In this document: piece after piece, positions 13,194 through 31,089 of the stretch
How the letters are laid out: every line of letters starts with the position of its first letter
Numbering within the stretch: position 1 is the first letter of the stretch
Assembly (NCBI GenBank): GCA_965279525.1
Contig: CBDIIB010000003.1
Span: forward strand, 480,001 to 544,000
Direction of reading: 5' to 3'
From: Tagaea sp.
Lineage (GTDB): Bacteria; Pseudomonadota; Alphaproteobacteria; CACIAM-22H2
DNA length: 64,000 nt
Translations under genes and position numbers: made by a program
The notes under the pieces: generated by a model
What the model was told of the DNA's origin: nothing
What the model saw: the letters and a program-made list of their open reading frames with translations, nothing else
The model's database searches: none

Positions 13194-13964
13194 CTATTTC
13201 CCCTTGAAGATCGCGGGGCGTTTTTCGATGAAGGCCGCAACACCCTCCCGGAAATCCGCAGTCGCGACAAGCGTGGAGAATGCCTTGCGCTCGAACTGCA
13301 GGCCCTGCTCCAGCGGAACGTCGCGCGCGGCGAGCACCAGTTCCTTGGCAAGACGGATGGCGAGCACGGGCTTTTCGGCGATCTTCGCGGCGAGTGCGAC
13401 GGCGCGCGCGGCGACTTCCAAGTCCGGCACGGTTTCGGCGACAAGGCCGCACTGGCGTGCCTCGGCAGCCGAGATCATCTCGCCCGACAGGATCAGCTTC
13501 ATCGCGACCTGCTGGCCGGCGATGCGCGCCAGGCGCTGCGTGCCGCCGGCACCGGGCACCACGCCGAGATTGACCTCCGGCTGGCCGAACCTGGCACCTT
13601 CGCCCGCGACGACGATGTCGGCATGCATGGCAAGCTCGCACCCGCCACCCAGCGCATAGCCGCACACGGCGGCCACGACCGGCTTGGGGAAGCGGCGGAA
13701 GCGCTGCCAGTGGCCGACGCGCGCGTCGAGCAGGGCCGTGACGGCATCGCGCGTCGCGAGTTCCTTGATGTCGGCGCCCGCCGCGAAGACCTTGTCGCCG
13801 CCGGTGACGATCACGGCGCGGATCGCGTCGTCCGCAGCCGCGGCGTCGAGCGCGTCAGCGAGCAGGCCGAGCAGGGCGGTCGACAGCGCGTTGCGCGCCG
13901 CCGGGCGGTTGAGAGTCAGGCGCCGCACGCCGGGGGCGGGGTCGTCGGTAAGAAGGTCGGTCAT
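13194..13964 (-). CDS. Enoyl-CoA hydratase (PaaF-like)
   Basis: LTLNRP, FAAGADIKE, GYALGGGCELA, FGQPEVNLG, PGAGGTQRL. Confidence 0.92.
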   Translation of the reverse strand: MTDLLTDDPAPGVRRLTLNRPAARNALSTALLGLLADALDAAAADDAIRAVIVTGGDKVFAAGADIKELATRDAVTALLDARVGHWQRFRRFPKPVVAAVCGYALGGGCELAMHADIVVAGEGARFGQPEVNLGVVPGAGGTQRLARIAGQQVAMKLILSGEMISAAEARQCGLVAETVPDLEVAARAVALAAKIAEKPVLAIRLAKELVLAARDVPLEQGLQFERKAFSTLVATADFREGVAAFIEKRPAIFKGK

Positions 13965-14372: not shown

Positions 14373-15057
<685 letters not shown>

Positions 15058-15065
<8 letters not shown>

Positions 15066-15819
15066 CGCCGTCTCCCAGATAGGCCGCGCGGACCTCGGCG
15101 TTGGCGCGGATCGCCTCGGGCACGTCGCATGCGATGACGCGCCCGTAGACCAGCACGGTGATGCGGTCGGCGAGCGCGAACACCACGTCCATGTCGTGCT
15201 CGATCAGCAGGATCGTCTCTTCGCCTTTCAGGCGCGCCAAAAGCTGCGTCATGCGCTCGGATTCGTCCTTGCCCATGCCGGCCATTGGCTCGTCGAGCAG
15301 CAGCAGGCGCGGGCGCGTGGCCAGCGCCATCGCGATCTCGAGCTGGCGCTGTTCGCCGTGCGCGAGATTGACTGCGCGCACGTCGGCGCGCGCCCCCAGC
15401 CCGACGCGTTCGAGGATCGCGCGCGCCGGATCGCGCAGCGCACCTTCGGCGCGTGCGGACTGCCAGAAACGGAACGAATGCCCGTCCTGCGCCTGCACGG
15501 CCATCGCGACGTTGTCGAGGGCCGTGAAGCCGCGGAAGATCTGCGTGATCTGGTAAGAGCGCGCGATGCCGAGACGCGCGCGCGCGTCGACGGCCAAGCC
15601 GGTCACGTCCGCCCCGTCGAACGCGATGGTGCCGCCATTGGGGATGATCTCGCCGGCGAGCTGGGCGACCAGCGTGGTCTTGCCGGCCCCGTTCGGGCCG
15701 ATGATCGCGTGGATCTCGCCGCGCCGCACGTCGAGCGAGACGTTGTCGGTCGCCGTCAGGCCACCGAAGCGCTTGACCAGCCGATCGACCGACAGGAGCG
15801 TGTCAGTGGCCGCCGCCAT
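15058..15819 (-). CDS. Liv-type ABC ATP-binding protein (LivG-like)
   Basis: GPNGAGKTT, LAHGEQR, LDEPMAG, IEHDMD, AYLG. Confidence 0.93.
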
Positions 15820-16795
15820 GGCGATCCTCCTTCGGCAGGAACCAGCCGAAAATCCCGCGCCGCGCGAACAGCACCAGCAGCAGCAGGATCGGGCCGAACA
15901 CGACCATCCAGTGCTCGGTATAGTCGGGCAGTGTCTTTTCGAGGAACAGGAACGCGACGGCGCCGACCACCGGGCCGACCAGCGTGCCGAGGCCGCCCAG
16001 CACGACCATGACGATGAGGTCGCCCGAGCGCGTCCAGTGCATGATCGACGGGCTGATGTAGCTTTCGTGCGCCGCGAACAGGGCGCCGGCAAGGCCTGCG
16101 GTGGCACCGGCGATGGCGAAGGCCGCCAGCTTGTAGCGCGTGGTCGGGAAGCCCAGCGCCTTCATGCGTCGTTCGTTCTCGCGGCAGCCCTGCACGACCA
16201 GGCCGAAGCGCGAATTGACCAGCCGGCGTCCGCCATAGAGCACGGCGCACAGCACGGCGAGGACCAGATAGTAGAACGCCGCGTCGTCCTGCGTGTCGAT
16301 GAAGCCGAAGGCCACCGTGTCGCCGTCGAAGCGCAGCCCGTCGTCGCCGCCATAGGCGCGCAACGACACGAAGAAGAAATAGATCATCTGCGCGAAGGCG
16401 AGCGTGATCATGATGAAATAGATGCCCGTCGTGCGCAGGCTGACGAGGCCGATCAGGGCCGCGATGGCGCCCGACACGAGGATGGCGGCCGGCCACGTGA
16501 ACAGCACGTTGTTGGTGCCCATCCAGTCGCCGAGCAGCGGCACCTCGCGGCCCGCGTGCCAGTTCAGGATCGCCACGACATAGGCGCCGATCCCGAAGAA
16601 GGCGGCATGGCCGAAACAGACCATGCCGCCATACCCGAGGATCAGGTCGAGACTGACGGCCGCGATCGCGAAGATCAGGATCCGGCGGAACTGGGCGATC
16701 TGGTACTCCTGCCCCACCGCCGTGACGACGAGGGGCAGGGCTGCAAGGGCGAGCAGCAGCACGATCACGAACCAGGTGCGGCGGTCGAGCTTCAT
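15803..16795 (-). CDS. Liv-type ABC permease (LivM-like)
   Basis: LGYGGMVCFGHAAFFG, RENERR, VLGGLGTLVGP. Confidence 0.92.
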   Translation of the reverse strand: MKLDRRTWFVIVLLLALAALPLVVTAVGQEYQIAQFRRILIFAIAAVSLDLILGYGGMVCFGHAAFFGIGAYVVAILNWHAGREVPLLGDWMGTNNVLFTWPAAILVSGAIAALIGLVSLRTTGIYFIMITLAFAQMIYFFFVSLRAYGGDDGLRFDGDTVAFGFIDTQDDAAFYYLVLAVLCAVLYGGRRLVNSRFGLVVQGCRENERRMKALGFPTTRYKLAAFAIAGATAGLAGALFAAHESYISPSIMHWTRSGDLIVMVVLGGLGTLVGPVVGAVAFLFLEKTLPDYTEHWMVVFGPILLLLVLFARRGIFGWFLPKEDRHGGGH

Positions 16796-16799
16796 CGCT

Positions 16800-17687
16800 T
16801 CACGCCCGCGCCGAGAACAGGCCGGCGGGCTTCCAGAACAGCACCGTCGCCATCAGGATGTAGATCGCCATCTCGGCCAGTGCCGTCGGCAGGCCGAGCT
16901 GGGCCGGCACGATGCGCCCGAACGTGTCGACCACGCCCACGATGATCGCCGCGACGAAGGCACCCCGGATCGACCCGATGCCGCCGATGACGATCACGAC
17001 GAACGTCTTGATCAGCATCGAATCGCCCATGCCGATCTCGACCACGTAGATCGGGCCGGCCATGGCGCCGGCGAGCGCGGCGAGGGCCGCCCCCAGTGCG
17101 AAGACCAGCGTGTAGAGCAGCTTGATGTCGACGCCCAGCGCCCCGATCATCTCGCGGTTGGAGGCACCAGCACGGATCAGCATGCCCACGCGCGTGCGCG
17201 CGATCAGCCACCACAGGCCCAGCGCCACCGCCAGTCCCACCGCGAGCACGACGAGCCGGTAGACGGGGTAGGGCGCACCCGGGATGAGCTCGACGCGCCC
17301 GGCGAGGAAGGCGGGCACGTCGATGAAGATCGCGACCGGCCCCCACACGATCTTGACGAGCTCGTTGAAGAACAGGATCAGGCCGAACGTGGCGAGCACC
17401 TGATCGAGATGGTCGCGCGCATAGAGCGTGCGCAGCGCCACGGTCTCGACCGCAAGACCGACGATGAACGTGCCGGCGACGGCAAGCGGGACGGCCAGCA
17501 GGAAGCTGCCGGTCCACTGGGTGAAGGTCGCGGTCAGGAAGGCGCCGACCATGTAGAGCGAGCCGTGCGCCAGGTTGACCATGTTCATGATGCCGAAGAC
17601 GAGCGTCAGCCCGGCGGCCATCAAGAACAGCGTGACGCCGAGCTGCAGCCCGTTCAGCGTCTGCTCGAGGAGGAGGAGGAGGGACAA
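16800..17687 (-). CDS. Liv-type ABC permease (LivH-like)
   Basis: GLTLVFGIMNMVNLAHG, IRAGASN, IGGIGSIRG. Confidence 0.92.
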   Translation of the reverse strand: MSLLLLLEQTLNGLQLGVTLFLMAAGLTLVFGIMNMVNLAHGSLYMVGAFLTATFTQWTGSFLLAVPLAVAGTFIVGLAVETVALRTLYARDHLDQVLATFGLILFFNELVKIVWGPVAIFIDVPAFLAGRVELIPGAPYPVYRLVVLAVGLAVALGLWWLIARTRVGMLIRAGASNREMIGALGVDIKLLYTLVFALGAALAALAGAMAGPIYVVEIGMGDSMLIKTFVVIVIGGIGSIRGAFVAAIIVGVVDTFGRIVPAQLGLPTALAEMAIYILMATVLFWKPAGLFSARA

Positions 17688-17702
17688 GGGCGCGCAAGAT
17701 CC

Positions 17703-17726
17703 GCCCCTGCACCGAAGTGCAGGGGC
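17703..17726. other. Intra-operon stem-loop between SBP and permease genes (likely mRNA stability/attenuation element)
   Basis: GCCCCTGCAC-CGAA-GTGCAGGGGC perfect 10-bp stem. Confidence 0.65.
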
Positions 17727-17736
17727 GGGGCAGCGT

Positions 17737-18921
17737 TCATTTCATCTTGCACTGGCTGGCGTAGGCATCGGCATGACCCGAGAAGATGATGCCGCGCATC
17801 TGGTTGACCAGGCGGCCCTTCTCGTCCTTGCCGATCTGCGTCAGGTAGTAGTTCTGGATCGGGAAGTGGTTCGTGTTGAACTTGAACGGCCCGCGCGTCG
17901 ACGGGAAGTTCGCCGCCATCAGCGCGTTGCGGAAGGCGTCCTTGTTGGCGATGCTGCCGCCGGTGGCCTTCAGGGCGGAATCGATCAGCATGGCCGCGTC
18001 GTAGCTCTGCGCGGCGTAGGGGCTGGGGATCCGGTTGTGGGCCGCCTCGAAGTCCGCGACGAACTTCTGGTTCGCCGGATTGCCGAGGCTCTCCGACCAG
18101 TAGGTCGACGCGAACATGCCGAGAGCGGCATCGCCCACGCCGGGCAGGATCGTCTGGTCGGCCGTGAACGAAGGCGCGAACAGCGGCACCTGCGGCATCA
18201 GGCCGAGCTGCGAATACTGGCGGATGTACGCGACACCCATGCCACCCGGATAGAAGATGTAGGTGGCGTCGGGGCGTGCGGCGCGCAGGGCCGCGAGTTC
18301 GGCGGCATAGTCGGTCTGGCCGAGCTGGGTGTAGACCTCGCCGGCGATCTCGCCCTTGAAGTAGCGCTTGAAGCCGGCGAGCGCGTCGCGGCCGGCGGGA
18401 TAGTTGGGCGCCATGATGTACGCGCGCTTGATGCCCGCGTTCGTCATGTGCTGGCCCATCGCCTCGTGCGTGTTGTCGTTCTGCCACGAGGCCGCGAAGA
18501 AGTTCGGGTGGCAGTCCTTGCCCGCGAGTTCCGAGGGACCCGCGTTGCCCGAGATCAGGAACACGCCGCGGCGCTCCTTCAGCACGGTGTCCGACAGGGC
18601 GAGCATGATGTTCGAGAAGATCACGCCGGTGACGATGTCGACGCGGTCGCGCTGGACCATGCGTTCGGCCATCGCCTTGCCGGCGTCCGGGCGGAACTGG
18701 TCGTCGCCGACGATCAGCTCGGTCGGCACGCCGCCGAGGCGTCCGCCGGCATGGCGGATCGCGAGATTGAAGCCGTCGACCATGTCGCGGCCGAGGCCGG
18801 CATTGGGGCCCGACTGCGTGGTGATGAGGCCGATCTTGACGCCCTGCTGGGCGGCCGCCGGCTGGACCACGAGCGCCGGTACGGCGATCGCGAGCGCGGC
18901 GAGGAGGGTTCTGCGTAGCAT
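17737..18921 (-). CDS. ABC substrate-binding protein (aromatic-acid-binding, AbmH-like)
   Basis: Signal peptide; SGNAGPS..AGKDC, SWQND, APNYPAG, GPFKFNTNHFPIQ. Confidence 0.88.
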   Translation of the reverse strand: MLRRTLLAALAIAVPALVVQPAAAQQGVKIGLITTQSGPNAGLGRDMVDGFNLAIRHAGGRLGGVPTELIVGDDQFRPDAGKAMAERMVQRDRVDIVTGVIFSNIMLALSDTVLKERRGVFLISGNAGPSELAGKDCHPNFFAASWQNDNTHEAMGQHMTNAGIKRAYIMAPNYPAGRDALAGFKRYFKGEIAGEVYTQLGQTDYAAELAALRAARPDATYIFYPGGMGVAYIRQYSQLGLMPQVPLFAPSFTADQTILPGVGDAALGMFASTYWSESLGNPANQKFVADFEAAHNRIPSPYAAQSYDAAMLIDSALKATGGSIANKDAFRNALMAANFPSTRGPFKFNTNHFPIQNYYLTQIGKDEKGRLVNQMRGIIFSGHADAYASQCKMK

Positions 18922-18988: not shown

Positions 18989-20629
18989 TCAGGCTTTGGG
19001 CGTTTCGCGCAGCTTGAAGCGCTGCACCTTGCCCGTTTCGGTGCGCGGGAGTTCGGCGACGAATTCCACGCTGCGCGGATACTTGTAAGGGGCGATCGTC
19101 GCCTTGACGTGGTCCTGGAGTTCCTTGGCCGTCGCCGCGTCGGCGTGGCGCGGGTCGCGCAGCACGACGAAGGCCTTCACGATGGTGCCGCGCTCTGCAT
19201 CCGGTGCGCCGACCACGGCGCATTCGCGGATCTTGGGATGGTCGAGCAGAACGCTCTCCACCTCCGGGCCCGACACGTTGTAGCCGGCGGTCACGATCAT
19301 GTCGTCGGTGCGCGCCTGGTACCAGAAATACCCGTTCTCATCCATCCGGTAGGCGTCGCCCGTCAGGTTCCAGCCGTCCTGCACGTATTTGCGCTGGCGC
19401 TCGATGTCGTCGAGATAGCGGCAGCCGGTGGCGCCGCGCACCGCAAGCCGACCGATCTCGCCCGGCGGCAGGCGGTTGCCGTCGTCGTCGAGGATGCAGG
19501 CCGTGTAGCCGGGGATGGCGCGCCCCGTCGCACCCGCGATCATGTCGTCCGGCGCCGACGCGATGAAGATGTGCAGCATCTCGGTCGCCCCCAGCCCGTC
19601 GATCAGCTTGATGCCGGTGTGGCGCTGCCAGCCTTCGAACACGGGCTTGGGCAAGTGCTCGCCCGCCGACACGCCCTTGACCAGCGAGGCGAACGCCTTG
19701 GCCGGCGCGTTCTCGGTCATCGCGCGATAGGCGGTGGGGGCCGTGAACAGGATCGTCGCCTTGCCGTCCGACACGATCTGCGGCAGCAGGTCGGGGCTGG
19801 CACGCTCGGCCAGCAGCGTGGAAGCACCAAAGCGCATCGGGAACGTGACGAGGCCGCCCAGCCCGAACGTGAAGGCGAGCGGCGGCGAGCCGGTGAAGAT
19901 GTCGTCTGCTTGCGGTTTCAGCACGTAGCGCGGGAAGGCGTCGCAGATCGCCATCACGTCGCGGTGGAAATGCATCGTGCCCTTGGCGGGGCCCGTGGTG
20001 CCCGACGTGAACGCGATCAGCGCCACGTCGTCGGCCGCTGTCGGGCAGTTGTCGAACGTCGCGGGCTTGGCGGAAGCGCGCTTCTCGAGCCCGTCGGGCG
20101 CATCGCCGTTGAAATAGAGGATGTCGCTGCAGACCGGCATGGCGGCCTTCGCCTTCTCCATCTCCTCGGCCAGCCGAACGTCGCACAGGGCCAGCGTCAC
20201 CTGCGCCTTGCCCAGGATGTAGCCAAGCTCCTTGGCGCGCAGCAGCGGCATCGTGGCGACCGCGATGGCGCCGGCCTTCAGAACGGCGAACCAGCACGCG
20301 ACCATCATCGGGTTGTTGGCCGCGCGCAGCAGCACGCGGTTGCCGGACTTGAGGCCGTAGTCTTCCACCAGCACGCGCGCGATCCGGTTGGCGTGCGCGA
20401 GGAGATCGGCGTAGGTCCAGACGCTTTTGCCGAAGCGCAGGCAGGCGCGCGGGCCCCAGCCGCGCGCGACGGCGGCATCGAGCAGTTCGACGCCGGCGTT
20501 CAGGTGCGGCGGGTAGTAAAGCTCGGGCAGGGCCGCGAACATCTCCGGCCATTCGCTTTGCGCCGGCAGGTGCGCGCGCGCGAAGCCGTCGACATGCGCG
20601 GACGGTCCGAGGGCGGGGCGCTCAGCCAT
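18989..20629 (-). CDS. 2-aminobenzoate/benzoate-CoA ligase (AbmG-like)
   Basis: SAHVDGFARAHLP N-terminus, FTSGTTGPAKGTMHFH, DGLGATEMLHIF, APYKYPR, TETGKVQRF. Confidence 0.88.
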   Translation of the reverse strand: MAERPALGPSAHVDGFARAHLPAQSEWPEMFAALPELYYPPHLNAGVELLDAAVARGWGPRACLRFGKSVWTYADLLAHANRIARVLVEDYGLKSGNRVLLRAANNPMMVACWFAVLKAGAIAVATMPLLRAKELGYILGKAQVTLALCDVRLAEEMEKAKAAMPVCSDILYFNGDAPDGLEKRASAKPATFDNCPTAADDVALIAFTSGTTGPAKGTMHFHRDVMAICDAFPRYVLKPQADDIFTGSPPLAFTFGLGGLVTFPMRFGASTLLAERASPDLLPQIVSDGKATILFTAPTAYRAMTENAPAKAFASLVKGVSAGEHLPKPVFEGWQRHTGIKLIDGLGATEMLHIFIASAPDDMIAGATGRAIPGYTACILDDDGNRLPPGEIGRLAVRGATGCRYLDDIERQRKYVQDGWNLTGDAYRMDENGYFWYQARTDDMIVTAGYNVSGPEVESVLLDHPKIRECAVVGAPDAERGTIVKAFVVLRDPRHADAATAKELQDHVKATIAPYKYPRSVEFVAELPRTETGKVQRFKLRETPKA

Positions 20630-22073
20630 GCGCCGGCTCCGCCTCGTCGAACGCCGGGATCGCCGGATCGACGCGCACGACGTTGGACGGCGGCGAGTGG
20701 CGGCCGGTCCCGTCATAGGCCATCACGTGATAGGTATAGCCGATGCCGCCGAGCGCCAGCTTGTCGGTGTATTTCACACTCTTGACCGCTTCCACGACGC
20801 TCGCCGTGCCGTCGTCCTCGGCGCGGAAGATGTCGTAGCCCGCGATGTCGCCCAAAGCACGCGCCCATGACAGCTTGACCGTGCCCTTGTCGATCGTCGC
20901 CTTCAGGCCCGCACCGCCGGCCGGCCATTGGGGTGCATCCTTCGACAGGTCCTCGACGGGTGCCTGCGTGTAGCCCTTGGGCCACAGGAAGCAGCTCACC
21001 AGCTTGAAATTCTCGTCGAGCTGCTTGCACACGTTGCAGTAGATGCAGCGCAGGATCGCGTCCTGGCGCTTCTCTTCCACCTTGCGCACCCACGCCGGAT
21101 CGGCGAGGAGCTGGCGGGCCATGCCGATCATGTCGGCCTTGCCGTCGGCAAGCAGGCGCTCGGCATCGGCGGGCTCGCTGATCTTGCCGACCGAGACGAC
21201 GGGCACGTCGAAGCCGTGGCGGTTGATGAACTGCTTGATGCCTGCGGCAAGATGCACATGCGGCATCGGCGGGTACTGCTCGCCCGGCATGCAGCGGTCG
21301 CCCGAATAGCCGGTGTAGGGATAGAGCGGCGAGCCTTCCTTCTGGACGGCATCCTCGAACTTGCCGCCGACGGAAAGCGAGATGTAATCCACACCAAGCT
21401 GCGCCATGCGCAGCGCGATGCGCTGGCTGTCGGGCAGCGCGTATCCGTCCTTGATGGCTTCTTCCGCGAGGAAGCGCACGCCGACGGGGAAGTCCTTGCC
21501 CACGGTCTGGCGCACGCGCGCCATCACGCGCCCGAACATGCGCAGGCGGCCTTCCAGCGTGCGCCCGTCGAAACCGTCGCGCCGAGGATTGCGCCGCGAC
21601 AGGAACGAGGACAGCGTATAGGCGTGCGCCGAATGGAGTTCCACCCCGTCGTAGCCTGCCTCGCGCGCGCGCGCGGCGGCCGTGCCGAAGGCTTCGACGA
21701 TGCCGTCGATGTCGGCATCGGTCAGCATGTCGATCGTCTGGCGCCAGCCCGAGCGCGCGACCTTCATGAAGTGGATGATCTGCGGCACGATCTTCGACGG
21801 GCCGGCATCTTTGACCTGTTTGACGAGATCGCGGTGGCCGGGGACGAAATCGTCGCGCGACAGGCGCAGCAGCGGCCCCGATTTCGATTCATGCACCGCC
21901 GTCGCCTCGACGACGATCAGCCCGACATGGCCGGCGGAGTAGCGCACATAGCGGTCGATGATGCCCTGGTTGACGAAGCCGTCCTCGCCCGACAGCCGCG
22001 TGACCATCGCAGGCACCAGCACCCGGTTGGGAACGGTCATCGTGCCGACGCGCAAGGGTTCGAGCAGTTTCAT
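20622..22073 (-). CDS. NADH:flavin oxidoreductase (Old Yellow Enzyme family) with a CX2CX2CX11C motif and C-terminal fibronectin-III-like domain
   Basis: PNRVLVPAM, GYDGVELHSAHAY, MARQLLADP, CIYCNVC-x11-C; tail VKLSW...GYDIFR...YTD...YTYHVMAYDGTG. Confidence 0.85.
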   Translation of the reverse strand: MKLLEPLRVGTMTVPNRVLVPAMVTRLSGEDGFVNQGIIDRYVRYSAGHVGLIVVEATAVHESKSGPLLRLSRDDFVPGHRDLVKQVKDAGPSKIVPQIIHFMKVARSGWRQTIDMLTDADIDGIVEAFGTAAARAREAGYDGVELHSAHAYTLSSFLSRRNPRRDGFDGRTLEGRLRMFGRVMARVRQTVGKDFPVGVRFLAEEAIKDGYALPDSQRIALRMAQLGVDYISLSVGGKFEDAVQKEGSPLYPYTGYSGDRCMPGEQYPPMPHVHLAAGIKQFINRHGFDVPVVSVGKISEPADAERLLADGKADMIGMARQLLADPAWVRKVEEKRQDAILRCIYCNVCKQLDENFKLVSCFLWPKGYTQAPVEDLSKDAPQWPAGGAGLKATIDKGTVKLSWARALGDIAGYDIFRAEDDGTASVVEAVKSVKYTDKLALGGIGYTYHVMAYDGTGRHSPPSNVVRVDPAIPAFDEAEPAHG

Positions 22074-22246
22074 TTTTCGCCGACCTCGGCAAGGCATTGG
22101 GGACAAAGACACGTGGCCTGCATGCCGGCTTCGGGAACCGGCATCACGACGTCGACATGCATGCACCAGCAATCGCCCTTCGGATCGCAGGCGAACAGGG
22201 CGCCGCAGCGCACGCAGACAAGCTCGCTCGCGGTCGCGGACGTCAC
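22070..22246 (-). CDS. Cysteine-rich CWC-family small protein (58 aa, 8 Cys)
   Basis: GGAGG RBS, GTG start; [10 protein letters not shown]...DCWC...CLCPQC; 4-nt overlaps with both neighbours. Confidence 0.8.
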
Positions 22247-23427
22247 GGCGCGGCCTCCGTATCGAAGGCGGCAAGCGTCTGGCCGGCGATGACGAGCTTC
22301 TGGATCTCGCTCGTGCCTTCGTAGATGCGCAGCGCGCGGACTTCGCGATAGAGCCGCTCGACGACGTTGCCGGAAACCACGCCCGTCCCGCCATGGAGCT
22401 GCACGGCCCGGTCGGCCGCGCGCTGGGCCATCTCGGTCGCGTAGAACTTCGCCATCGACGCCTCGCGCGTCACGCGCGGCGCCGCGACGTCCTTCGTCCA
22501 TGCAGCGCGATAGACGAGCAGGGCCGCGGCGTCGATCTCGGTCGCCATGTCGGCGATGGCGGCTTGGGTCAGCTGGAAATCGGCGAGCTTTCCGCCGAAC
22601 GCCTCGCGCGTCTTCGTGTAGGAAATGGCCTCGTCGAGTGCGCGGCGCGCGAACCCCAGGGCAGCCGCCGCGACGGTCGAACGGAAGATGTCGAGCGTGG
22701 CCATCGCGGTCTTGAAGCCTTCGCCCGGCTTGCCGAGCAGGGCCGCGGCCGGCACGCGGCAATCCTTGAACGCGAGCGTGGCGAGCGGATGGGGTGCGAT
22801 GGTGTCGATGCGCGCTTCGACCGTGAGGCCGGGCGCGTCGGCATCGACGACGAATGCCGACAGGCCCTTTGCGCCGGGCGCTTCGCCCGTGCGCGCGAAG
22901 ACGACATAGTGCGCGGCGATCCCGCCGTTCGAGATCCAGGTCTTGCGCCCGTCGAGCACGAAGGCATCGCCGTCGCGCCGGGCGGTCATGCGCAGCGCGG
23001 ACACGTCCGATCCGCCTTCGGGTTCCGACAGCGCAAAAGCCGCAAGGTGTGTGCCGGCGCGCGTGCGCGGCAGGTACTTCGCCTTCTGCGCCTCGGTCCC
23101 GAAAAGCGTGATCGAGCCGGTTCCCAGCCCCTGCATGGCGAACGCGAAATCGGCAAGGCCCGAGCGGTAGGCGAGCGTCTCGCGGATCAGGCACAGGGCG
23201 CGCACGTCGAGCGTGTCGAACGCGCCGCCATGCGACTTCGGCACGGCATAGTCGAGGAAGCCGGCATCGCCGAGCATCCTGGCGAACTTCTTCGTCAACG
23301 CGTCGACATCCGTTTCATTATGCGCCAGCGGCTCGACCTCCCGCTTCGCCCAGTCGTAGAGCTTTGCGGCGAGCGCACGGTGTGCGTCGTCGAAGAACGG
23401 CCAGCCGAGGAAGGAGCGGTCGGGCAT
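22243..23427 (-). CDS. Acyl-CoA dehydrogenase (AbmD-like)
   Basis: [47 protein letters not shown]. Confidence 0.93.
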
Positions 23428-24227
23428 CAGTTCCCCTCGAAGACGGGCTTCTGCTTCGCCACGAACGCGCGATAGGCGCGCTCGAAATCGCCGGTCTGCA
23501 TGCAGATCGCCTGTGCCTGCGCCTCGGCCTCGATCGCCTGGTCGACGCCCATGTTCCACTCGTGGTCGAGCGCCTTCTTGGTCATGGCGTGCGCGAAGGT
23601 CGGTCCGTCGGCAAGTTCGCGCGCGAACCCCTGCGCCGCCGCCAGCAGCGCATCGGGCTCGACGAGGCGGTTGTAGAAGCCCCAGCGCTCGCCTTCCTCG
23701 CCGCCCATCGAGCGGCCGGTGAAAAGCAGCTCGGCCGCGCGGCCCTGACCGACGATGCGCGGCAGGATGGCGCACGCCCCCATGTCGCAGCCGGCAAGAC
23801 CGACGCGCACGAACAGATAGGCGACCTTGGCGCGCGCGGTCCCGAAGCGCAGGTCGGCCGCCATCGCGATGGCGGCACCGGCACCCGCGCAGATGCCGTC
23901 GATCGCGGCCACGACCGTCTGCGGGCATCCCCGGATCGCCTTGACGAGATCGCCCGTCATCCGCGTGAAGCGCAGCAGCTCGGGCATCTCCATGCCGACG
24001 AGCGGGCCGATGATCTCGTGCACGTCGCCGCCCGAGCAGAAGTTTCCGCCTGCCCCGGTGATGACGACGCTCTTGACCGCTTCGTCGTGGACGAGATCGC
24101 GGAACAGGTCGCGAAGCTCGGCGTAGCTTTCGAAGGTCAGCGGGTTCTTGCGCTCGGGCCGGTTCAACGTGATCGTCGCGACCTTGCCGTCGACGGACCA
24201 GAGGAAATGCTTCGGCGTGCGGGTCAT
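23427..24227 (-). CDS. Enoyl-CoA hydratase/isomerase (AbmC-like)
   Basis: [45 protein letters not shown]. Confidence 0.92.
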
Positions 24228-24706
24228 GCGCGGGCTCCGGCGGCGGATGTCTTGAGCTTGGCGAGCAGGGCGAGCAGGCGCTTGATCTCCGCGGGCTCGA
24301 GTGCGGCGAACGCTTCGTCGATCCAGCGCTCGTGCGTGGGCAGCATCGCCTCGAACGCGCGCTTGCCCGCCGGCGTCAGGCTGACCCTTGCCGAGCGGCG
24401 GTCGCCCGCCTGCGCCTGGCGCACGATCATTCCGTCGGTCACCAGCCCGTCGACGAGCCCGGTCACGTTGCCGGCCGAGACCATCATGCGCTGCGAGAGT
24501 TCGCCCATCGTGAGCCCGTCGGGCTGGCCGCCGTCCTGCGCGCGCGAAAGCTGCGAGAGCACGTCGAAGCGCGGCAGCGTGATCGCGTAGGTTTCGCGCA
24601 GGCCCGCGCGCACGCGCGTCTCGATCAGGTTGGCGCAAGTCAGCAGGCGCAGCCACGCGCGCAGCTGCAGATGTTCGGAATTCTCGTGGCCGCGTTCGCG
24701 ATCCAT
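24224..24706 (-). CDS. MarR-family transcriptional regulator
   Basis: [32 protein letters not shown]...LTPAG. Confidence 0.92.
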
Positions 24707-24713
24707 GTGGAGG

Positions 24714-25499
24714 CTAGACCTCGCCGCCGGCGACGGGCAGGGCAGCACCGGTAATGCCGGCCGCCGCATCCGAGCACAGATAGGCGACCAGCGAGGCGAC
24801 TTCGTCGGGCTGGACGAGCCGGCCCATCGGGTTTGACGCGGCGAAGCCCTTCACGACGCTGCCGGGATCCGAGCGGGTCTTGAGGGCGACGTTCTGGGCG
24901 GCATCGTGGAGCATCGGCGTGTCGGTATAGCCGGGGCACACGGCGTTGACGGTCACGCCCGTGCGCGCGAGTTCGACGCCGAGCGACCGGGTCAGCCCGA
25001 CCAGCCCGTGCTTTGCCGCCGTATAGGCCGACACGTAGGGGTATCCTTTGAGCCCGGCCGTCGATGCCACGTTCACGACCCGGCCCCAGCCGTCGGCGAC
25101 CATCGCCGGGATCGCCAGCCGGCTTGCCGTGAAGGCCGCCGTGAGGTTCAGCGCGATCATGCGCGCCCACATGTCGGGCTCGGTGCGTCCGATGGGTGCG
25201 GTTTCGGCACCGCCGGCATTGTTCACGAGGATGTCGACATGCTGGCTGCCGGCGGCCGCCGCGAAGGCCTGGCCAAGTGCGATCGCGTCGGTCACGTCGC
25301 AGGCGATCGCGTCGGCGTCGAGCTCGGCGGCCAGCGGGGCAAGACGATGCCGGTCGCGCGCGATCAGGGTGATGCGCGCACCTTGCTCGGCGAGTGCACG
25401 CGCAATGGCCGCACCGATGCCGCGCGAGGCGCCGGTCACGAGCGCGTGATGTCCGGCGAGCGAATGGGCGGGCGGGCGATCGTGTGGCGAACGGGGCAA
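24714..25499 (-). CDS. Short-chain dehydrogenase (AbmB-like 3-hydroxyacyl-CoA dehydrogenase)
   Basis: TGASRGIG, NNAG, YTAAKHG, VCPGYTDT; TTG start 7 nt after GGGAGG. Confidence 0.9.
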   Translation of the reverse strand: MPRSPHDRPPAHSLAGHHALVTGASRGIGAAIARALAEQGARITLIARDRHRLAPLAAELDADAIACDVTDAIALGQAFAAAAGSQHVDILVNNAGGAETAPIGRTEPDMWARMIALNLTAAFTASRLAIPAMVADGWGRVVNVASTAGLKGYPYVSAYTAAKHGLVGLTRSLGVELARTGVTVNAVCPGYTDTPMLHDAAQNVALKTRSDPGSVVKGFAASNPMGRLVQPDEVASLVAYLCSDAAAGITGAALPVAGGEV

Positions 25500-25519
25500 G
25501 GCGGGGCCTCCCGGACGAA

Positions 25520-25541
25520 GATATTTTAAGTCTAAAATATC
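25520..25541. promoter_or_regulatory. Palindromic operator, probably for the cluster's MarR
   Basis: GATATTTTA-AGTC-TAAAATATC perfect 9-bp inverted repeat about 20 nt upstream of the first gene. Confidence 0.75.
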
Positions 25542-25570: not shown

Positions 25571-26239
25571 CTATTTGTGGATGGTGGCGAGCCCCTGCCA
25601 CGACCCGAGGGGTGCCGGGTGTCCGGGCCAACTGCCCATCGTTCGGGCCACCGACGGTGTCTCGACCTGCGATCCCTCGACTTCGATGGCCGACATGAAC
25701 CGGATGTCGTGCGGTGCCGGGGCGGCAAACGGCATCACGAGGCGATGCCAGCCGTCGAAGTGGCCGCCCGTCGCGCGTGCATGCCACGTATAGACGGGGA
25801 CCCGCCGTTCGCGCGCGAGGATATAGACAGCGCGGATCAGAAGTGGCCCGAGCGAACGGCGCACCCGCGCCTCGTCGCCGAGCGTCGCGCCTTCCCAGTC
25901 GCGGCCGTCGCGCTCGGCGACGCGCGAACCGAAAATGCGATAGCGCAGGTCGGTCGTCCCCGGGATCGGGTCGACGACCGTCGAACGCGTGACGACAGCG
26001 CCGAACTCTTCGGTCCGGAAATCGCTCCAGTCCGGAAGCTGGCGGGTACCACGCAGCAGGTGCCAGCGCGTCAGGCACTCGCGATGGACCGCGATGGGGA
26101 CGTCGTCGAGCGTCGGCTCCCAGCATACAATCGGTGGCGCGAACTGCGTGTACTTCTCCAGGATCCCGTTACGGTTTTCCGCAAGCGCCGCGAGCACTTC
26201 TTCGAACGCAGATTCCAAGTCGGCGATGAGCGTGCCCAC
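25571..26239 (-). CDS. PAS_5 (DUF1457)-like domain protein
   Basis: WHLLRGTRQLPDWSDF...LRYRIFGSRV...DWEG...RLVMPF pattern; GGAGG RBS. Confidence 0.7.
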   Translation of the reverse strand: MGTLIADLESAFEEVLAALAENRNGILEKYTQFAPPIVCWEPTLDDVPIAVHRECLTRWHLLRGTRQLPDWSDFRTEEFGAVVTRSTVVDPIPGTTDLRYRIFGSRVAERDGRDWEGATLGDEARVRRSLGPLLIRAVYILARERRVPVYTWHARATGGHFDGWHRLVMPFAAPAPHDIRFMSAIEVEGSQVETPSVARTMGSWPGHPAPLGSWQGLATIHK

Positions 26240-26345: not shown

Positions 26346-27470
26346 CTAGTTGCCGGGCGGATCGAGGCGCAGCAATGCCCCGTCCTGCGCATCGGTCAGC
26401 AGATGAACGCGGCCGGCTGCATCGACACGCACGTCGCGGATCCGATGTCCGAGGCTGGCCAGCAACTTTTCTTCCCGTATGACCTTGCCGTCGGCAATCT
26501 CCAGCCGGTGCAGGGCGCGGCCGGCAAGTGCGCCGACGAACACCGAACCACGCCACGCCGGAAAGGCGTCGCCGCGATACCAGGCCATGCCCGAAGGTGC
26601 GATCGACGGCGTCCACAGCGTGATGCCGTCTTCGATGCCGGTGCGTGCCGTTGCTTCGCCGATCGGCGTGCCGCTGCCATAGTTCCGGCTGTGCGTCACG
26701 ACAGGCCAGCCATAGTTGCGCCCGCCAAGAAGGCGATTGAGCTCGTCGCCGCCTTGCGCGCCATGGTCCGCTGCCCAAAGCGTACCTGCGGCATCGAGGG
26801 CGAGCGACTGGCTGTTGCGCAGTCCGAGCGCGAATATCTCCGGCCGATAGCCTTCGCGCCCGACGAACGGATTGTCGGCCGGCACGCTGCCGTCGTCTTC
26901 AAGGCGGATCAGCTTGCCGTTGAGATCCCCCGGCCGCTGGGAGCGCATGTCGTCGCGCCGGTCGCCGGTCGTGATGTAGAGCCTGGCGTCGGCGCCGAAG
27001 GCCAGGCGGCCGGCGAAGTGCATCGAGGTCGTGTTCGGCGGACTTGAATCGAAGATCGGGCGCAGGTCCTCGACGCGTCCGTCGCCAAGCCGGCCGCGCG
27101 CCACGCGCGTGACGGTCCCGCCGGCAACCTCGGCGGCATAGCTCAGGTACAGGATCCGGTTTTCGGCAAAGCGGGGATGGAGAGCGATATCGAGCAGTCC
27201 GCCTTGCCCGCGCGCCGCGACCGGCGGGATGCCGGCGAGGGGGGCGGCCTGCAGCGCGCCGCCGGCGACGACGCGCAGACGCCCCGGGCGCTCGGTCACG
27301 AGCATGCGCCCGTCCGGCAGGAAGGCGAGGCCCCACGGATGTTCGAGACCGGCCGCGATCCGCACGACGTGGAAGCGCGCCTTTTCGCTTGCGATGATGT
27401 CCTGCGCTAACGCACCTGCCGGAAGCCCGAGCAGGAGCGCCAGGATCAAGATCGTCCGGAACGCGCGCAT
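26346..27470 (-). CDS. PQQ-dependent aldose sugar dehydrogenase (YliI/GSDH family)
   Basis: Signal peptide; GLEHPWGLAFLPDG, GQGGLLD, GLRNSQ, GGDELN, NYGWP, SIAPSG, RIRDV. Confidence 0.93.
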   Translation of the reverse strand: MRAFRTILILALLLGLPAGALAQDIIASEKARFHVVRIAAGLEHPWGLAFLPDGRMLVTERPGRLRVVAGGALQAAPLAGIPPVAARGQGGLLDIALHPRFAENRILYLSYAAEVAGGTVTRVARGRLGDGRVEDLRPIFDSSPPNTTSMHFAGRLAFGADARLYITTGDRRDDMRSQRPGDLNGKLIRLEDDGSVPADNPFVGREGYRPEIFALGLRNSQSLALDAAGTLWAADHGAQGGDELNRLLGGRNYGWPVVTHSRNYGSGTPIGEATARTGIEDGITLWTPSIAPSGMAWYRGDAFPAWRGSVFVGALAGRALHRLEIADGKVIREEKLLASLGHRIRDVRVDAAGRVHLLTDAQDGALLRLDPPGN

Positions 27471-27537
27471 CCTTGGCCTCCGTTGTGGACATTCTGCGGG
27501 CTTCCGGCACCGCATGGCCATCGGTTAGCATGCCCGC

Positions 27538-29928
27538 ATGTCGATCGCCAAACCGTTCGCCACGCCGGTTCCCGATTCACGCCGGCCGATGGCGCCCGAT
27601 CCGGGTTCGCTGCCGTCGGCGGGCAACCTTGCGATCCTGAAGGCGATCGAACGCAAGGTTCTGTGGCTGTCGAGCTGGACGATCCACAACGCCAACAAGA
27701 TCCGCGCCTCGCGCGACGGGCTCAAGGTCGGCGGCCACCAGGCTTCGTCGGCATCCATGGCGACGCTGATGACGGCGCTCTATTGCGCGGTGCTGCGCCC
27801 GCAGGACCGCGTCGCGGTCAAGCCGCACGCCTCGCCGGTCTTCCATGCGATCCAGTACCTGCTCGGGCACCAGACACGCGAGAAGCTCGAGCGGTTCCGC
27901 GCACTCGGCGGCGCGCAGAGCTATCCTTCGCGCACCAAGGACATCGACGACGTCGATTTTTCGACCGGCTCGGTCGGGCTCGGCGTGGCCGAGACGCTGT
28001 TCGCCTCGATCACCCAGGATTACGTGCGCCTCAAGGGGCTTGCCGCACCCGATTGGCCGGAGGGCCGGATGATCGCGCTGGTCGGCGATGCCGAGTTCGA
28101 CGAGGGGAACATCTTCGAGGCGATGCTCGAAGGCTGGAAGCACGACGTGCGGAATCTCTGGTGGATCATCGACTACAATCGGCAGAGCCTCGACAGCACC
28201 GTCTCCGACCATCTGTTCCAGCGCATCGTCGGCACGTTCGAATCGATCGGCTGGCGCGTCATCGTCCTGAAATACGGCAAGCTTCTGGAAGCGGCATTCG
28301 CGCGGCCGGGCGGGGAAGCGCTGCGCCGGTGGATCGACGAATGTCCGAACTCGCTCTATTCGGCCCTCACCTACAAGGGCGGCCCTGCGTGGCGCCAGTC
28401 GCTCGAGCGCGATCTGGGCAGCGAGCCGGGCATCCGCGAGATCCTCGCTTCCTACAACGACGACGACGCGCTCCACCGGCTGATGACGAACCTCGCCGGG
28501 CACGACATGGAAAGCGTGCTCGAGGCCTATGCCGACGCCGCGTCGACCGACCGGCCGACCGTGATCGTCGCATACACGATCAAGGGGCACGGGCTCGCCT
28601 TTGCCGGGCACAAGGACAACCATGCCGGCTTGATGAACGCCGAGCAGATCGACGGGTTCCGCCGGACGATGGGGATCGCACCCGGTGCCGAGTGGGACCG
28701 GCTTTCCGGTTTCGACGATCCCGCAGCGGCCGAGCGGTTCCTGGCACAGGTGCCGTTCGCGAAGGTTTTCCCGCGCCGTCTGGCGACGTCGCCGGTTCCC
28801 ATCCCCGACGACTTCCCGATCCCGGTCGCGGACAGGCCGACGAGCACGCAGGAAGGCTTCGGGCGCGTGCTCTACGAGCTTGCCGGCGGCAGCAGCGAAC
28901 TGGCGCGGCGCATCGCCACGACGTCGCCGGACGTCACGGTGTCGACCAATCTCGGCGGCTGGGTCAACCGGCGCGGGATCTTCGACCGGCACGATCGCAC
29001 CGACACGTTCAAGGCCGAGAAGGTCGTCTCCGCACAGTCGTGGAACATGAGTCCCGCCGGCCAGCATGTCGAACTCGGCATCGCGGAGAACAACCTGTTC
29101 TTGATGCTGGGTGCGCTTGGCCTCGCCGGCGACCATTTCGGCGCGCGCCTGCTGCCGGTCGGCACGCTCTACGACCCGTTCATCAACCGAGGTCTCGATG
29201 CGCTGACTTATGCCTGCTACCAGGACGCGCGCTTCATCGTCGTGGCGACACCCTCGGGCGTGACGCTTGCCCCCGAGGGCGGCGCCCACCAGTCGGTCGG
29301 CACGCCCTTGGTCGGGATCGGTGCGCCGGGGCTCGTCTATTTCGAGCCGGCCTTCGTCGATGAACTTGCCCACATCCTTCGCTGGGGTTTCGCGCACATG
29401 CAGGCGCCGGACGGTGCTTCAGTCTATCTGCGCCTGTCGACGCGCCCGCTTGTCCAGCCGGTACGCGCGGACAGTTCGTGGATCGCCGACTGTCTGGCCG
29501 GCGCCTACTGGCTGGTGGAACCGGCGCCGGGGAGCGAACTGGCGGTCGCCTATGTCGGGCCGGTGGCGCCCGAAGCCATCGAGGCGCACGCAGCGCTGCT
29601 TGAAGACGTGCCGGGGGCGGGGCTTCTCGCCGTGACCTCGCCCGACCGGCTGCACGCGGACTGGCGCATGCGCGGGGCCGACGGCCATGCGGCGCGGCTG
29701 CTGGCGCGGCTGGCATCCGATGCGGGGATCGTCACCGTCATCGACGGGCATCCGGCGGCGCTGTCGTGGCTGGGTGGTGTGTCGGGCCAGCGCGTGCGGG
29801 CACTGGGCGTGGAAAGTTTCGGCCAGTCGGCCGACATTCCGGATCTCTATCGCCTCAAGGGTCTCGATGCCGGGGCCATTCTCGATGCGGCGGCGGCATT
29901 GCTCGTCGATCGCGCGCGCGCCAAATGA
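27538..29928 (+). CDS. TPP-dependent 2-oxoacid dehydrogenase E1, AceE-like/transketolase fold
   Basis: KVGGHQASSAS, KPHASP, STGSVGLG, GDAEFDEG, GIAENN, PEGGAHQS. Confidence 0.88.
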   Translation: MSIAKPFATPVPDSRRPMAPDPGSLPSAGNLAILKAIERKVLWLSSWTIHNANKIRASRDGLKVGGHQASSASMATLMTALYCAVLRPQDRVAVKPHASPVFHAIQYLLGHQTREKLERFRALGGAQSYPSRTKDIDDVDFSTGSVGLGVAETLFASITQDYVRLKGLAAPDWPEGRMIALVGDAEFDEGNIFEAMLEGWKHDVRNLWWIIDYNRQSLDSTVSDHLFQRIVGTFESIGWRVIVLKYGKLLEAAFARPGGEALRRWIDECPNSLYSALTYKGGPAWRQSLERDLGSEPGIREILASYNDDDALHRLMTNLAGHDMESVLEAYADAASTDRPTVIVAYTIKGHGLAFAGHKDNHAGLMNAEQIDGFRRTMGIAPGAEWDRLSGFDDPAAAERFLAQVPFAKVFPRRLATSPVPIPDDFPIPVADRPTSTQEGFGRVLYELAGGSSELARRIATTSPDVTVSTNLGGWVNRRGIFDRHDRTDTFKAEKVVSAQSWNMSPAGQHVELGIAENNLFLMLGALGLAGDHFGARLLPVGTLYDPFINRGLDALTYACYQDARFIVVATPSGVTLAPEGGAHQSVGTPLVGIGAPGLVYFEPAFVDELAHILRWGFAHMQAPDGASVYLRLSTRPLVQPVRADSSWIADCLAGAYWLVEPAPGSELAVAYVGPVAPEAIEAHAALLEDVPGAGLLAVTSPDRLHADWRMRGADGHAARLLARLASDAGIVTVIDGHPAALSWLGGVSGQRVRALGVESFGQSADIPDLYRLKGLDAGAILDAAAALLVDRARAK

Positions 29929-30001: not shown

Positions 30002-30823
30002 TTAGCGGAAGAGTCCGAGAAGGACGGACGGCTGCTGGTTGGCGATGGACAGCGACTGGATGCCGAGCTGCTGGCGAACCTGCAGCGCCTGCACCGCAGC
30101 GGCCGACTTGCCGATGTCAGCGTCGACGATGGCACCGAGGCCGGTCGTCGTGGAGTCCACGATCGCGTTCACGAAGCCCGACTGCAGCGTGAGCGTACGC
30201 GTTTCGGCAGCGTTGGAACCGAGCGAGGTCGCAACGGCCTGCTGGAACGTGTTGAGCGACGTGAGTGCGAGCGACGCAGCCGAAGCCGACGTGACCGACG
30301 AACCGTTGAAGGTCGTGAAGGCCGCGTTGACCGAGGACTGCGAGGTCATCGTGAGGGTCGTGGCAGTCGTGTCGGCAAGGAACGTCTTGGCGACCGAACC
30401 GGCCGACAGGAGGTTGGTGCCGTTGTAGTTCGCCTGGCTGATGAAGTTGTTGACCTGGCTCGTCATGGCGTTGAAGTCGGCGGTGTAGATCGTGCGCTGG
30501 TTGGCGGAGATCGACCCGTCGGCGAGCTGCGTGATCTTGGCCTGCAGGTTGCCGATGAGGTCGGAGATGTTGGTCAGCGCCGCCTGGGTGACGGAGCCGA
30601 GGCCAACGCCGTTGGCGAGAGAACCCTGCACGGCCGTGTAGGCCTGCAGGTTGCCGCGGATACCCTGCGCGACCGAGAAGGTCGACGCGTCATCCGACGC
30701 ATCCGCCACTCGATAGCCGGTCTGGACCTGCTTCGATGCGACGTTGAGTGCGGTTTGGGTGCTACGCAGCGAGGACAATGCGAGCATTGCGCCCACATTG
30801 GTATTGACTGAATTGGCAGCCAT
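30002..30823 (-). CDS. Flagellin (copy 1, 273 aa)
   Basis: SVNTNVGAM..L, TGYRVADASDDAS, YNGTNLL, IVDADI...LQVRQQLGIQSLSIANQQP..LLGLFR. Confidence 0.95.
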   Translation of the reverse strand: MAANSVNTNVGAMLALSSLRSTQTALNVASKQVQTGYRVADASDDASTFSVAQGIRGNLQAYTAVQGSLANGVGLGSVTQAALTNISDLIGNLQAKITQLADGSISANQRTIYTADFNAMTSQVNNFISQANYNGTNLLSAGSVAKTFLADTTATTLTMTSQSSVNAAFTTFNGSSVTSASAASLALTSLNTFQQAVATSLGSNAAETRTLTLQSGFVNAIVDSTTTGLGAIVDADIGKSAAAVQALQVRQQLGIQSLSIANQQPSVLLGLFR

Positions 30824-31011
30824 TTTTTGGTCCCTTTCTGGTCAGTTGGTTTCGACTTCTGTCGAACCTGGAGTTCATGTCGTTCGGTTTTTCGGGTTTC
30901 CCCGAAGAATGCGAACAGGTCACGCCGGACCCACGAACTACCGAGCAATTACACACTACGGGAAAACATGCGGTTACACAAGTAGCTCATAATATTGGGT
31001 TTATTGCGCTT

Positions 31012-31027
31012 TTAAATATATATTAAC
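31012..31027. promoter_or_regulatory. CtrA box upstream of flagellin 1
   Basis: TTAA-ATATATA-TTAAC = TTAA-N7-TTAAC. Confidence 0.7.
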
Positions 31028-31089
31028 TTAAATTTTAAATATAGATGCCGAAGGTTGAATATCGTGTTGATTTCGGAGAACAGGCGGGA

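Follow-up and report, generated by a model that had tools for sequence, protein, structure and literature searches.

Does an operon that resembles those for the degradation of aromatic acids as coenzyme A (CoA) esters, and that carries no monooxygenase gene, encode a route independent of oxygen? The question is raised by a 64,000-nucleotide stretch of the genome of Tagaea sp. (GenBank assembly GCA_965279525.1, contig CBDIIB010000003.1, positions 480,001 to 544,000; G000:C3:480001-544000 in our numbering), hereafter called the window. On its minus strand, from position 25499 to 18989, seven genes with almost no intergenic space encode a short-chain dehydrogenase/reductase (SDR), a MarR-family regulator, an enoyl-CoA hydratase family protein (ECH), an acyl-CoA dehydrogenase (ACAD), a CWC cysteine-rich miniprotein, an old yellow enzyme (OYE) with a [4Fe-4S] motif and a fibronectin type III (FN3)-like domain, and an aryl-CoA ligase. 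A preliminary description of this DNA had likened the operon to the abm pathway of Azoarcus/Aromatoleum evansii and had proposed either an undescribed O2-independent route or an abm variant for another substrate. Here we report that a full-length abmA gene, encoding the fused flavin adenine dinucleotide (FAD) monooxygenase/OYE reductase of that pathway, is present on another contig behind the same palindromic operator. What the genome encodes is an abm-type pathway in variant form and no new kind of system; the second of the two earlier proposals was the better description.

A monooxygenase gene behind the same operator

Within the window there is no match to the FAD monooxygenase family PF01494, as the preliminary description had said. 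Elsewhere in the genome (4.35 Mb, 66% G+C, five contigs), the situation is different. The OYE family PF00724 is represented at only two loci, the OYE gene of the window and a gene on contig C2, and on C2 the PF00724 match lies in one 778-codon frame with a PF01494 match. Read from its ATG (G000:C2:30643-32877), this frame encodes a 744-amino-acid (aa) AbmA-type fusion of PF01494 and PF00724, which matches NF006101 ("bifunctional salicylyl-CoA 5-hydroxylase/oxidoreductase") end to end (1173.8 bits; cut-off, 1078).

The connection between the two contigs is an operator. In the window, the perfect 8+4+8 palindrome ATATTTTAAGTCTAAAATAT (positions 25521 to 25540, no strand assigned; half-sites ATATTTTA-N4-TAAAATAT), the presumed MarR site, lies just past the hairpin that terminates the upstream gene and 21 nt upstream of the SDR start. 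It is the sole match in the window at up to three mismatches, with matches in none of 100 shuffles, in agreement with the single operator described earlier. A scan of the whole genome at up to three mismatches recovered five sites. Four of these had at most two mismatches, compared with a chance expectation of about 0.006 such sites in the genome, as estimated from base composition. The site TTATTTTAGGTCTAAAGTAT at C2:30596 (two mismatches) lies 27 nt before the abmA ATG; a further copy is found at C2:29277, within a 166-nt direct repeat; and a site at C4:700318 (one mismatch) lies 4 nt before a 4HBT_2 thioesterase gene, which is followed by a RidA gene (PF01042) and a second ACAD gene. The shared operator shows the window to be one of three loci of what would be a MarR-controlled regulon. 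Because abmA lies under the same palindrome on C2, the O2-independent, monooxygenase-free reading of the operon is not supported.

The operator is retained in related bacteria. At up to three mismatches, it occurs within 150 nt upstream of the SDR gene in 46 of 52 related loci, and it is found upstream of the OYE gene where that gene stands alone or first (L038, L062, L063, L073, and L079). Of 20 genomes checked for it upstream of abmA (17 OYE-bearing and 3 OYE-free), 18 have it, 20 to 65 nt from the gene (the misses are G017 and G009), and it also precedes abmA in five of five further genomes. The motif offers a simple means of finding members of the regulon.

Two observations concern the remaining operator-like sites. 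The 166-nt direct repeat on C2 (G000:C2:29180-29345 and 30499-30664; L017:9180-9345 and 10499-10664; copies 98% identical) comprises the terminal part of a TauE gene together with the operator and roughly 22 nt from the start of abmA; between its copies lies an insert of about 1.3 kb with an open reading frame (ORF) for a porin-like outer-membrane protein on the opposite strand. The fifth site, at G000:C4:668795, is non-palindromic, has three mismatches, and lies about 570 nt upstream of an enoyl-CoA hydratase homologue (C4:669369-670136); it is probably a chance match.

Co-occurrence of the OYE with abmA

Close relatives of the OYE (65 to 95% identity, except for two loci at 59%) are encoded at the 80 loci that we examined, the closest named relatives of the locus being Tagaea metagenome-assembled genomes (MAGs) with OYE identities of up to 95%. 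Upstream genes were counted in the 60 loci with at least 4 kb of upstream sequence, among which an SDR and a MarR gene were each found in 48, an ACAD gene in 39, and an ECH gene in 38. Downstream, an aryl-CoA ligase gene follows within 4.5 kb in 58 of the 68 loci whose sequence extends 2 kb or more in that direction, which ties the OYE homologues firmly to this ligase. The most common layout was SDR-MarR-ECH-ACAD-(CWC)-OYE-ligase (34 loci, 26 without and 8 with CWC), and a shorter layout, SDR-MarR-OYE-ligase, was seen in 8 loci. The abmA gene itself was found within the OYE locus in only 4 of the 80 (L039, L064, L066, and L072); it is also adjacent to the OYE gene in G188, G265, and G423. All-against-all clustering of the ORFs of the 80 loci added only such recurrent neighbors as a DEAD-box helicase, which reflect lineage synteny. 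A tblastn search against plasmids gave a single partial match (45%) with no useful context.

At the level of whole genomes, the two enzymes are closely associated. Among 50 genomes of the order, the OYE was found in 36 and a match to NF006101 in 46, and 35 of the 36 OYE-bearing genomes had such a match; some of these matches end at contig ends and one has three in-frame TGA codons. The sole genome of the order with the OYE and no NF006101 match is 74% complete. In an even sample of 401 alphaproteobacterial genomes, the OYE was found in 22 and an NF006101 match in 83, i.e., in 21 of the 22 OYE-bearing genomes versus 62 of the 379 genomes without the OYE (59 after three matches to the OYE half only were dropped). 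These counts span 17 genera of the class sample; related genomes are not independent, so that statistics computed from them are overstated. Further OYE-bearing genomes, reached through the loci, had abmA in 10 of 10 cases (one duplicates a sampled genome), including five in which the OYE gene stands alone beside a divergent MarR gene.

The OYE as an addition to the abm cluster

For comparison, we inspected abmA and its surroundings at 20 loci in sampled OYE-free genomes. These clusters typically read abmA-SDR-MarR-ECH-ACAD-ligase, often followed by thioesterase-RidA or an ABC transporter. The SDR gene directly follows abmA in 17 of the 20, the SDR/MarR/ECH/ACAD-type set follows it in 17 to 19, there is no gene between ACAD and ligase, and an OYE of the window type was found in none of the 20 loci. 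The earlier assignment of the operon to an abm-like aryl-CoA cluster stands; the ligase, ECH, ACAD, SDR, and MarR genes of the window are the set found beside abmA in the OYE-free genomes. For the genome's second ACAD and second ECH, counterparts were likewise seen next to OYE-free clusters (L111 and L139 to L142). Thus, the Tagaea genome has every gene of the canonical cluster, with abmA and thioesterase-RidA detached from the operon, plus the OYE and CWC genes. As the same cluster exists without the OYE in OYE-free genomes, the OYE, with or without CWC, is an add-on, and the gene order shows it to be an accessory module inserted between ACAD and ligase, not a replacement for the oxygenase.

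A more distant relative was seen in one OYE-free genome (G389). There, a gene for a 43%-identical OYE relative (L129:1371-2852, minus strand) lies across the operator from the SDR gene and is divergent from the abm operon. Its product has no FN3 domain and an incomplete cysteine motif (CEYTNYC...C), and a TetR-like ORF comes after it. This arrangement suggests that a wider OYE subfamily is tied to abm clusters.

Anatomy of the OYE

The OYE gene (positions 20622 to 22073, minus strand) encodes a 483-aa protein with a PF00724 match of 154 bits (cut-off, 27). Its barrel is nearest to single-domain YqjM-type ene-reductases (112 bits to 3gr7), compared with at most 95 bits to any Fe-S member and 68 bits to 2-naphthoyl-CoA reductase, and YqjM, TsER, and XenA were the top Foldseek matches (E of about 1e-15). 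The His-x-x-His-x-Tyr motif is kept, LHSAHAY of the OYE aligning with IHAAHGY of 3gr7. The protein may thus be viewed as an ene-reductase-type flavoenzyme with a YqjM-like barrel that would bind flavin mononucleotide (FMN). No NCBIfam equivalog covers it: its best matches, to the BaiCD (185 bits), mycofactocin OYE_2 (183 bits), and bilirubin reductase N-domain (130 bits; cut-off, 425) models, are all far under the respective cut-offs.

Past the barrel, C343-x2-C346-x2-C349-x11-C361 (positions 20991 to 21047, minus strand) aligns with CIGCNVC...C of trimethylamine dehydrogenase, histamine dehydrogenase, and 2,4-dienoyl-CoA reductase and with the [4Fe-4S] segment of 2-naphthoyl-CoA reductase as well (structures 1ps9, 1djq, 6de6, and 6qkg). 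Three of these cysteines (C343, C349, and C361) do not vary among 82 diverse relatives, in which C346 is conserved to at least 90%. In P0125, a 50%-cluster representative that is 57% identical to the OYE, the second cysteine of the motif is a glycine (CVYGNIC), and some FN3-bearing members of the family may accordingly have less than the full four-cysteine site.

The C-terminal 114 aa of the OYE gave no direct Pfam match, even at E values of up to 5. The terminal 100 aa or so were modeled as an all-beta sandwich (predicted local distance difference test [pLDDT] score of about 90) and match repeats present in 7 to 21 copies in giant proteins, two of which are called fn3 by Pfam; we place the FN3-like domain at about residues 380 to 475 (positions 20649 to 20936, minus strand). 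PF00724 was the only family found in the Pfam scan, which detected no NAD(P)H/FAD domain, and the protein ends at residue 483. With no nicotinamide domain, the [4Fe-4S] cluster must exchange electrons with another protein.

The family is a tight one. Identity to the OYE is 71% or higher for all of its top 120 database relatives, which are 448 to 552 aa long, and clustering at 50% reduces the FN3-bearing form to one full-length representative, which is what marks the family as tight. Members of the family share an invariant insertion of 35 residues, GGKFEDA...PYTGYSGDRCMP, which short forms without the FN3-like domain have as well. The OYE-FeS-FN3 family is common in environmental Alphaproteobacteria and belongs to the little-studied OYEs that have an Fe-S cluster and lack a nicotinamide domain, for which the electron partner is the question.

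The CWC miniprotein

Directly upstream of the OYE gene, the CWC gene (positions 22070 to 22246, minus strand; GTG start; 58 aa) is real: it matches PF14375 (27.3 bits; cut-off, 24), has a GGAGG site 8 nt before the GTG, and overlaps both neighbors. It is single copy in this genome. Orthologues were found in 14 of the 80 loci, always directly upstream of the OYE gene and nowhere else in those loci; across the 14, seven cysteines are invariant and an eighth lies at position 50 or 51. An uncultured Rhodospirillales MAG (L036:9803-11461) encodes the two as one protein, with CWC joined in frame at the N-terminal end of the OYE. The same in-frame fusion is present in the Logan-derived protein P0033 (552 aa), which possibly comes from the same sample, and P0033 was the only hit among longer proteins searched with the CWC profile, which is weak evidence. 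The adjacency and one fusion argue for CWC and the OYE being physical partners, and they make CWC a testable candidate for the OYE's partner.

A proposed pathway and the place of the OYE in it

We propose, with a probability of roughly 0.6, that the three loci specify MarR-controlled aerobic catabolism of anthranilate, or possibly salicylate, by an abm-type pathway with the OYE as an accessory reductase. The acid would be imported by the ABC system encoded downstream of the ligase gene and would then be activated to its CoA ester by the ligase. The AbmA-type FAD monooxygenase/OYE reductase encoded at C2:30643-32877 would hydroxylate and reduce the ring, these first two steps being those of the abm pathway as described in PMC4539516 and PMC3534580. 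RidA and/or a hydratase may remove ammonia, and the ECH, ACAD, and SDR would be responsible for ring opening and beta-oxidation. The third operator would drive the thioesterase-RidA(-ACAD) genes on C4. The lower abm pathway, after AbmA, is undescribed in the literature, and the regulon gives a full list of candidates for the route: the ligase, AbmA, the SDR, two ECHs, two ACADs, the thioesterase, and RidA.

As to the substrate, the genome encodes a kynureninase (285 bits; cut-off, 246) and also a gentisate 1,2-dioxygenase. The RidA gene in the regulon and the kynureninase plausibly favor anthranilate. The NCBIfam name of AbmA, the thioesterase, and the gentisate 1,2-dioxygenase leave salicylate open as a substrate.

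That the OYE acts as a reductase on a CoA ester of the pathway is, in our estimate, slightly short of an even bet. Since the FN3-like domain replaces the NAD(P)H/FAD domain of FadH-type relatives, an external one-electron carrier would supply the FMN of the OYE by way of the [4Fe-4S] cluster. Where present, the eight-cysteine CWC could be its dedicated metal-binding partner, as either a carrier or a docking/maturation factor. The OYE would act by reducing a cyclic enone or a quinoid species, bound to CoA and arising from AbmA or a later step. When NADH is limiting, AbmA is reported to release the aromatic by-product 5-hydroxyanthraniloyl-CoA, as cited in PMC3534580. As a first choice, the OYE would salvage this by-product, 2-amino-5-hydroxybenzoyl-CoA (or gentisyl-CoA), by returning it to the 5-oxocyclohexene intermediate, an assignment we put forward as tentative; as a second choice, it would reduce another enoyl-CoA or ene-dione intermediate. 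Equally speculative is the idea that the OYE and CWC make up a new two-component reductase without direct use of NAD(P)H. Electrons would arrive via CWC or another carrier, and the pair would carry out, on a ring species bound to CoA in the lower anthraniloyl-CoA pathway, a reduction not yet described, such as the re-entry of 2-amino-5-hydroxybenzoyl-CoA or gentisyl-CoA by dearomatizing reduction.

Several points weigh against this scheme. The step given to the OYE was deduced from chemical considerations only, and OYE/Fe-S enzymes are also able to run as dehydrogenases. For the substrate, a route from salicylate through gentisyl-CoA to gentisate is just as open a reading, and the ligase scores slightly below the cut-off of the benzoate-CoA ligase family TIGR02262 (356.4 versus 375.25 bits). 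The single full-length model of the OYE is poor (mean pLDDT of 63.6). In the class sample, about 59 to 62 genomes have abmA without the OYE, compared with 21 that have both; most abm clusters thus do without the OYE, which is dispensable and could have a peripheral role, such as the detoxification of electrophiles or quinones. CWC is missing from 66 of the 80 loci, so that it is not essential and cannot be an obligatory electron donor, and the ORF clustering of the 80 loci revealed no recurrent ferredoxin or electron transfer flavoprotein (ETF) neighbor of the OYE. Finally, genome G417 (96% complete, 230 contigs) has the operator followed by SDR-MarR-OYE-ligase, and in it we found only OYE-type partial matches, with no detectable monooxygenase half.

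Genes for ferredoxin-linked enzymes do occur beside a few members of the family. Subunit genes of a 2-oxoacid:ferredoxin oxidoreductase adjoin the OYE and RidA genes in L063 (11422-14380) and L092, and an Ior-like pair lies beside the abm cluster in L066 (19025-21330); neighbors of this type were found in these 3 of the 80 loci only. These genes could encode a ferredoxin-reducing system. No close homologue of the 2-oxoacid:ferredoxin oxidoreductase genes was found in the Tagaea genome.

Alternative roles for the OYE

One alternative, which we regard as unlikely, is that the OYE works in the oxidative direction: acting as a dehydrogenase or desaturase, it would take electrons from a saturated ring or amine intermediate and pass them via the [4Fe-4S] cluster to ETF or another acceptor, in the manner of trimethylamine dehydrogenase, while RidA would hydrolyze any imine or enamine formed. 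The Fe-S segment of the OYE does align best with those of trimethylamine and histamine dehydrogenases and the protein has no NAD(P)H domain, but the motif in its active site, His-x-x-His-x-Tyr, is that of YqjM-type OYEs, which are ene-reductases. The order is oxygen using, given its near-universal abmA, and RidA adjoins the OYE in L063, L067, and L092; however, no ETF genes recur nearby. Moreover, the AbmA product is already an enamine and loses ammonia without oxidation, according to the pathway chemistry in PMC3534580.

A second alternative is a role in protection. The OYE could serve generally in stress defense or detoxification, as a reductase of quinones, quinone-imines, or reactive enals arising from aminophenol-type intermediates; it would be co-regulated with the pathway without acting on its CoA esters, and CWC, a small zinc protein in this case, would have nothing to do with it. 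Detoxification is a common function of OYEs, and this one, as noted above, is dispensable in most abm clusters. By-products of the p-aminophenol type are expected from AbmA (PMC3534580). A general protective enzyme would sit poorly with the exceptional conservation of the OYE over its top 120 matches and with its near-constant place next to the ligase gene, often in translational coupling to ACAD and ligase, and the CWC-OYE fusion argues for a specific partnership. We hold this explanation, too, to be improbable.

Least probable is the O2-independent route, in which the OYE would reduce an aryl-CoA ring in the style of 2-naphthoyl-CoA reductase, or would reductively deaminate 2-aminobenzoyl-CoA, and no monooxygenase would be needed: the lack of a monooxygenase gene in the window, a [4Fe-4S] site without an NAD(P)H domain (which makes a low-potential donor conceivable), the minimal cluster of G417, and the ferredoxin oxidoreductase-type genes of L063, L092, and L066 speak for it, and are outweighed by abmA under the same operator in this genome, by the co-occurrence of abmA with the OYE (21 of 22 OYE-bearing genomes in the class sample and 35 of 36 in the order), by a barrel nearer to YqjM (112 bits) than to 2-naphthoyl-CoA reductase (68 bits), and by the rarity of ferredoxin oxidoreductase neighbors (3 of 80 loci).

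Relation to described systems

With the abm pathway of A. evansii and the related salicylyl-CoA 5-hydroxylase route, the regulon shares the predicted aryl-CoA ligase, the fused FAD monooxygenase/OYE reductase, the beta-oxidation-type ECH, ACAD, and SDR genes, the MarR regulator, binding-protein-dependent uptake, and a RidA-type gene. It differs in that it is split over three loci, with abmA detached from the operon, and in that the OYE-[4Fe-4S]-FN3 enzyme and CWC are inserted between ACAD and ligase. To our knowledge, the A. evansii abm clusters have no such OYE gene.

The OYE itself resembles FadH, 2-enoate reductase, trimethylamine dehydrogenase, and 2-naphthoyl-CoA reductase in that a CxxCxxCx11C [4Fe-4S] segment comes after the FMN TIM barrel. 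Unlike these enzymes, it has an FN3-like domain of about 100 aa in place of their C-terminal FAD/NAD(P)H (or ADP) domains, and its barrel is closer to the single-domain YqjM-type OYEs than to any Fe-S member. A single-domain OYE with a C-terminal four-cysteine motif and no FAD domain is also known from the cluster of Nox of Rhodococcus erythropolis MI2, from further unexplored clusters, and from short-form BilR, which has a separate flavodoxin-like partner. Fe-S-bearing OYEs without an FAD domain are therefore already recognized, and they are little explored. In contrast to the enzyme described here, the OYEs of the Nox cluster have not been described with an FN3-like domain, the 35-aa insertion, a CWC partner, or a fixed abm-operon context, and the paper on those single-domain Fe-S OYEs does not contain the word "fibronectin." In the limited literature collection that we searched, we found no description of an OYE with an FN3 domain, of a CWC partner, or of this operon, and no paper combined "old yellow enzyme," "4Fe-4S," and "fibronectin type III."

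Other genes of the operon and its surroundings

The remaining genes were identified with Pfam and NCBIfam profiles, and the junctions, read off the sequence, bear out the tightly overlapping operon and the transporter behind it that the preliminary description had noted (all positions are on the minus strand of the window). The SDR gene (24714 to 25499; TTG start; 261 aa; PF00106/PF13561), whose best NCBIfam matches are 3-hydroxybutyrate dehydrogenase-like and under cut-off, is separated by a 7-nt gap from the MarR gene (24224 to 24706; 160 aa; PF12802/PF01047). The latter shares an ATGA overlap with the gene of the first ECH (ECH1; 23427 to 24227; 266 aa; NF006107, 484.7 bits; cut-off, 330), which in turn overlaps by 1 nt with that of the first ACAD (ACAD1; 22243 to 23427; 394 aa; PF02771/PF02770/PF00441). 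Further overlaps join ACAD1 to CWC (GTGA), CWC to the OYE (ATGA), and the OYE to the AMP-forming aryl-CoA ligase (8 nt; the ligase gene spans 18989 to 20629; 546 aa; PF00501/PF13193).

Five genes of a branched-chain-amino-acid-type ABC importer (14373 to 18921) follow the ligase gene. They encode a Peripla_BP_6 binding protein (17737 to 18921; PF13458), two BPD_transp_2 permeases (16800 to 17687 and 15803 to 16795; PF02653), and two ATPases (15058 to 15819 and 14373 to 15065; PF00005). The importer is kept 3' of the ligase in several related loci, and we infer that it carries an aromatic acid. A second ECH gene (ECH2; 13194 to 13964; 256 aa; PF00378) begins 408 nt past the transporter and is present downstream in L020 to L027, L036, and L084 also; its product is 57% identical to the ECH that comes after abmA in L072. 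A hairpin with a T-rich tail ahead of it (14025 to 14011) suggests that ECH2 may be on a transcript of its own.

Contigs that are 90 to 99% alike, assembled from two RNA libraries (one plankton sample) and from two libraries that are probably DNA, cover parts of the operon. These contigs come from relatives and are no proof of transcription of the operon.

On the far side of the operator, a 222-aa gene directly upstream (25571 to 26239, minus strand) has only a faint PAS_5 match (E of 0.04) and occupies the same position in three Tagaea-type loci (L020, L022, and L084). The flank beyond it (26346 to 29928) holds a gene for a soluble glucose/sorbosone dehydrogenase (PF07995) and, on the opposite strand, a 796-aa transketolase/E1-like gene; no link of either to the operon was seen. 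Four tandem flagellin genes (272 to 311 aa) follow at 30002 to 34155 (minus strand). They are accompanied by repeated antisense shadow ORFs of 129 aa, and the G+C content of the region (0.61 to 0.64) is below that of its surroundings.

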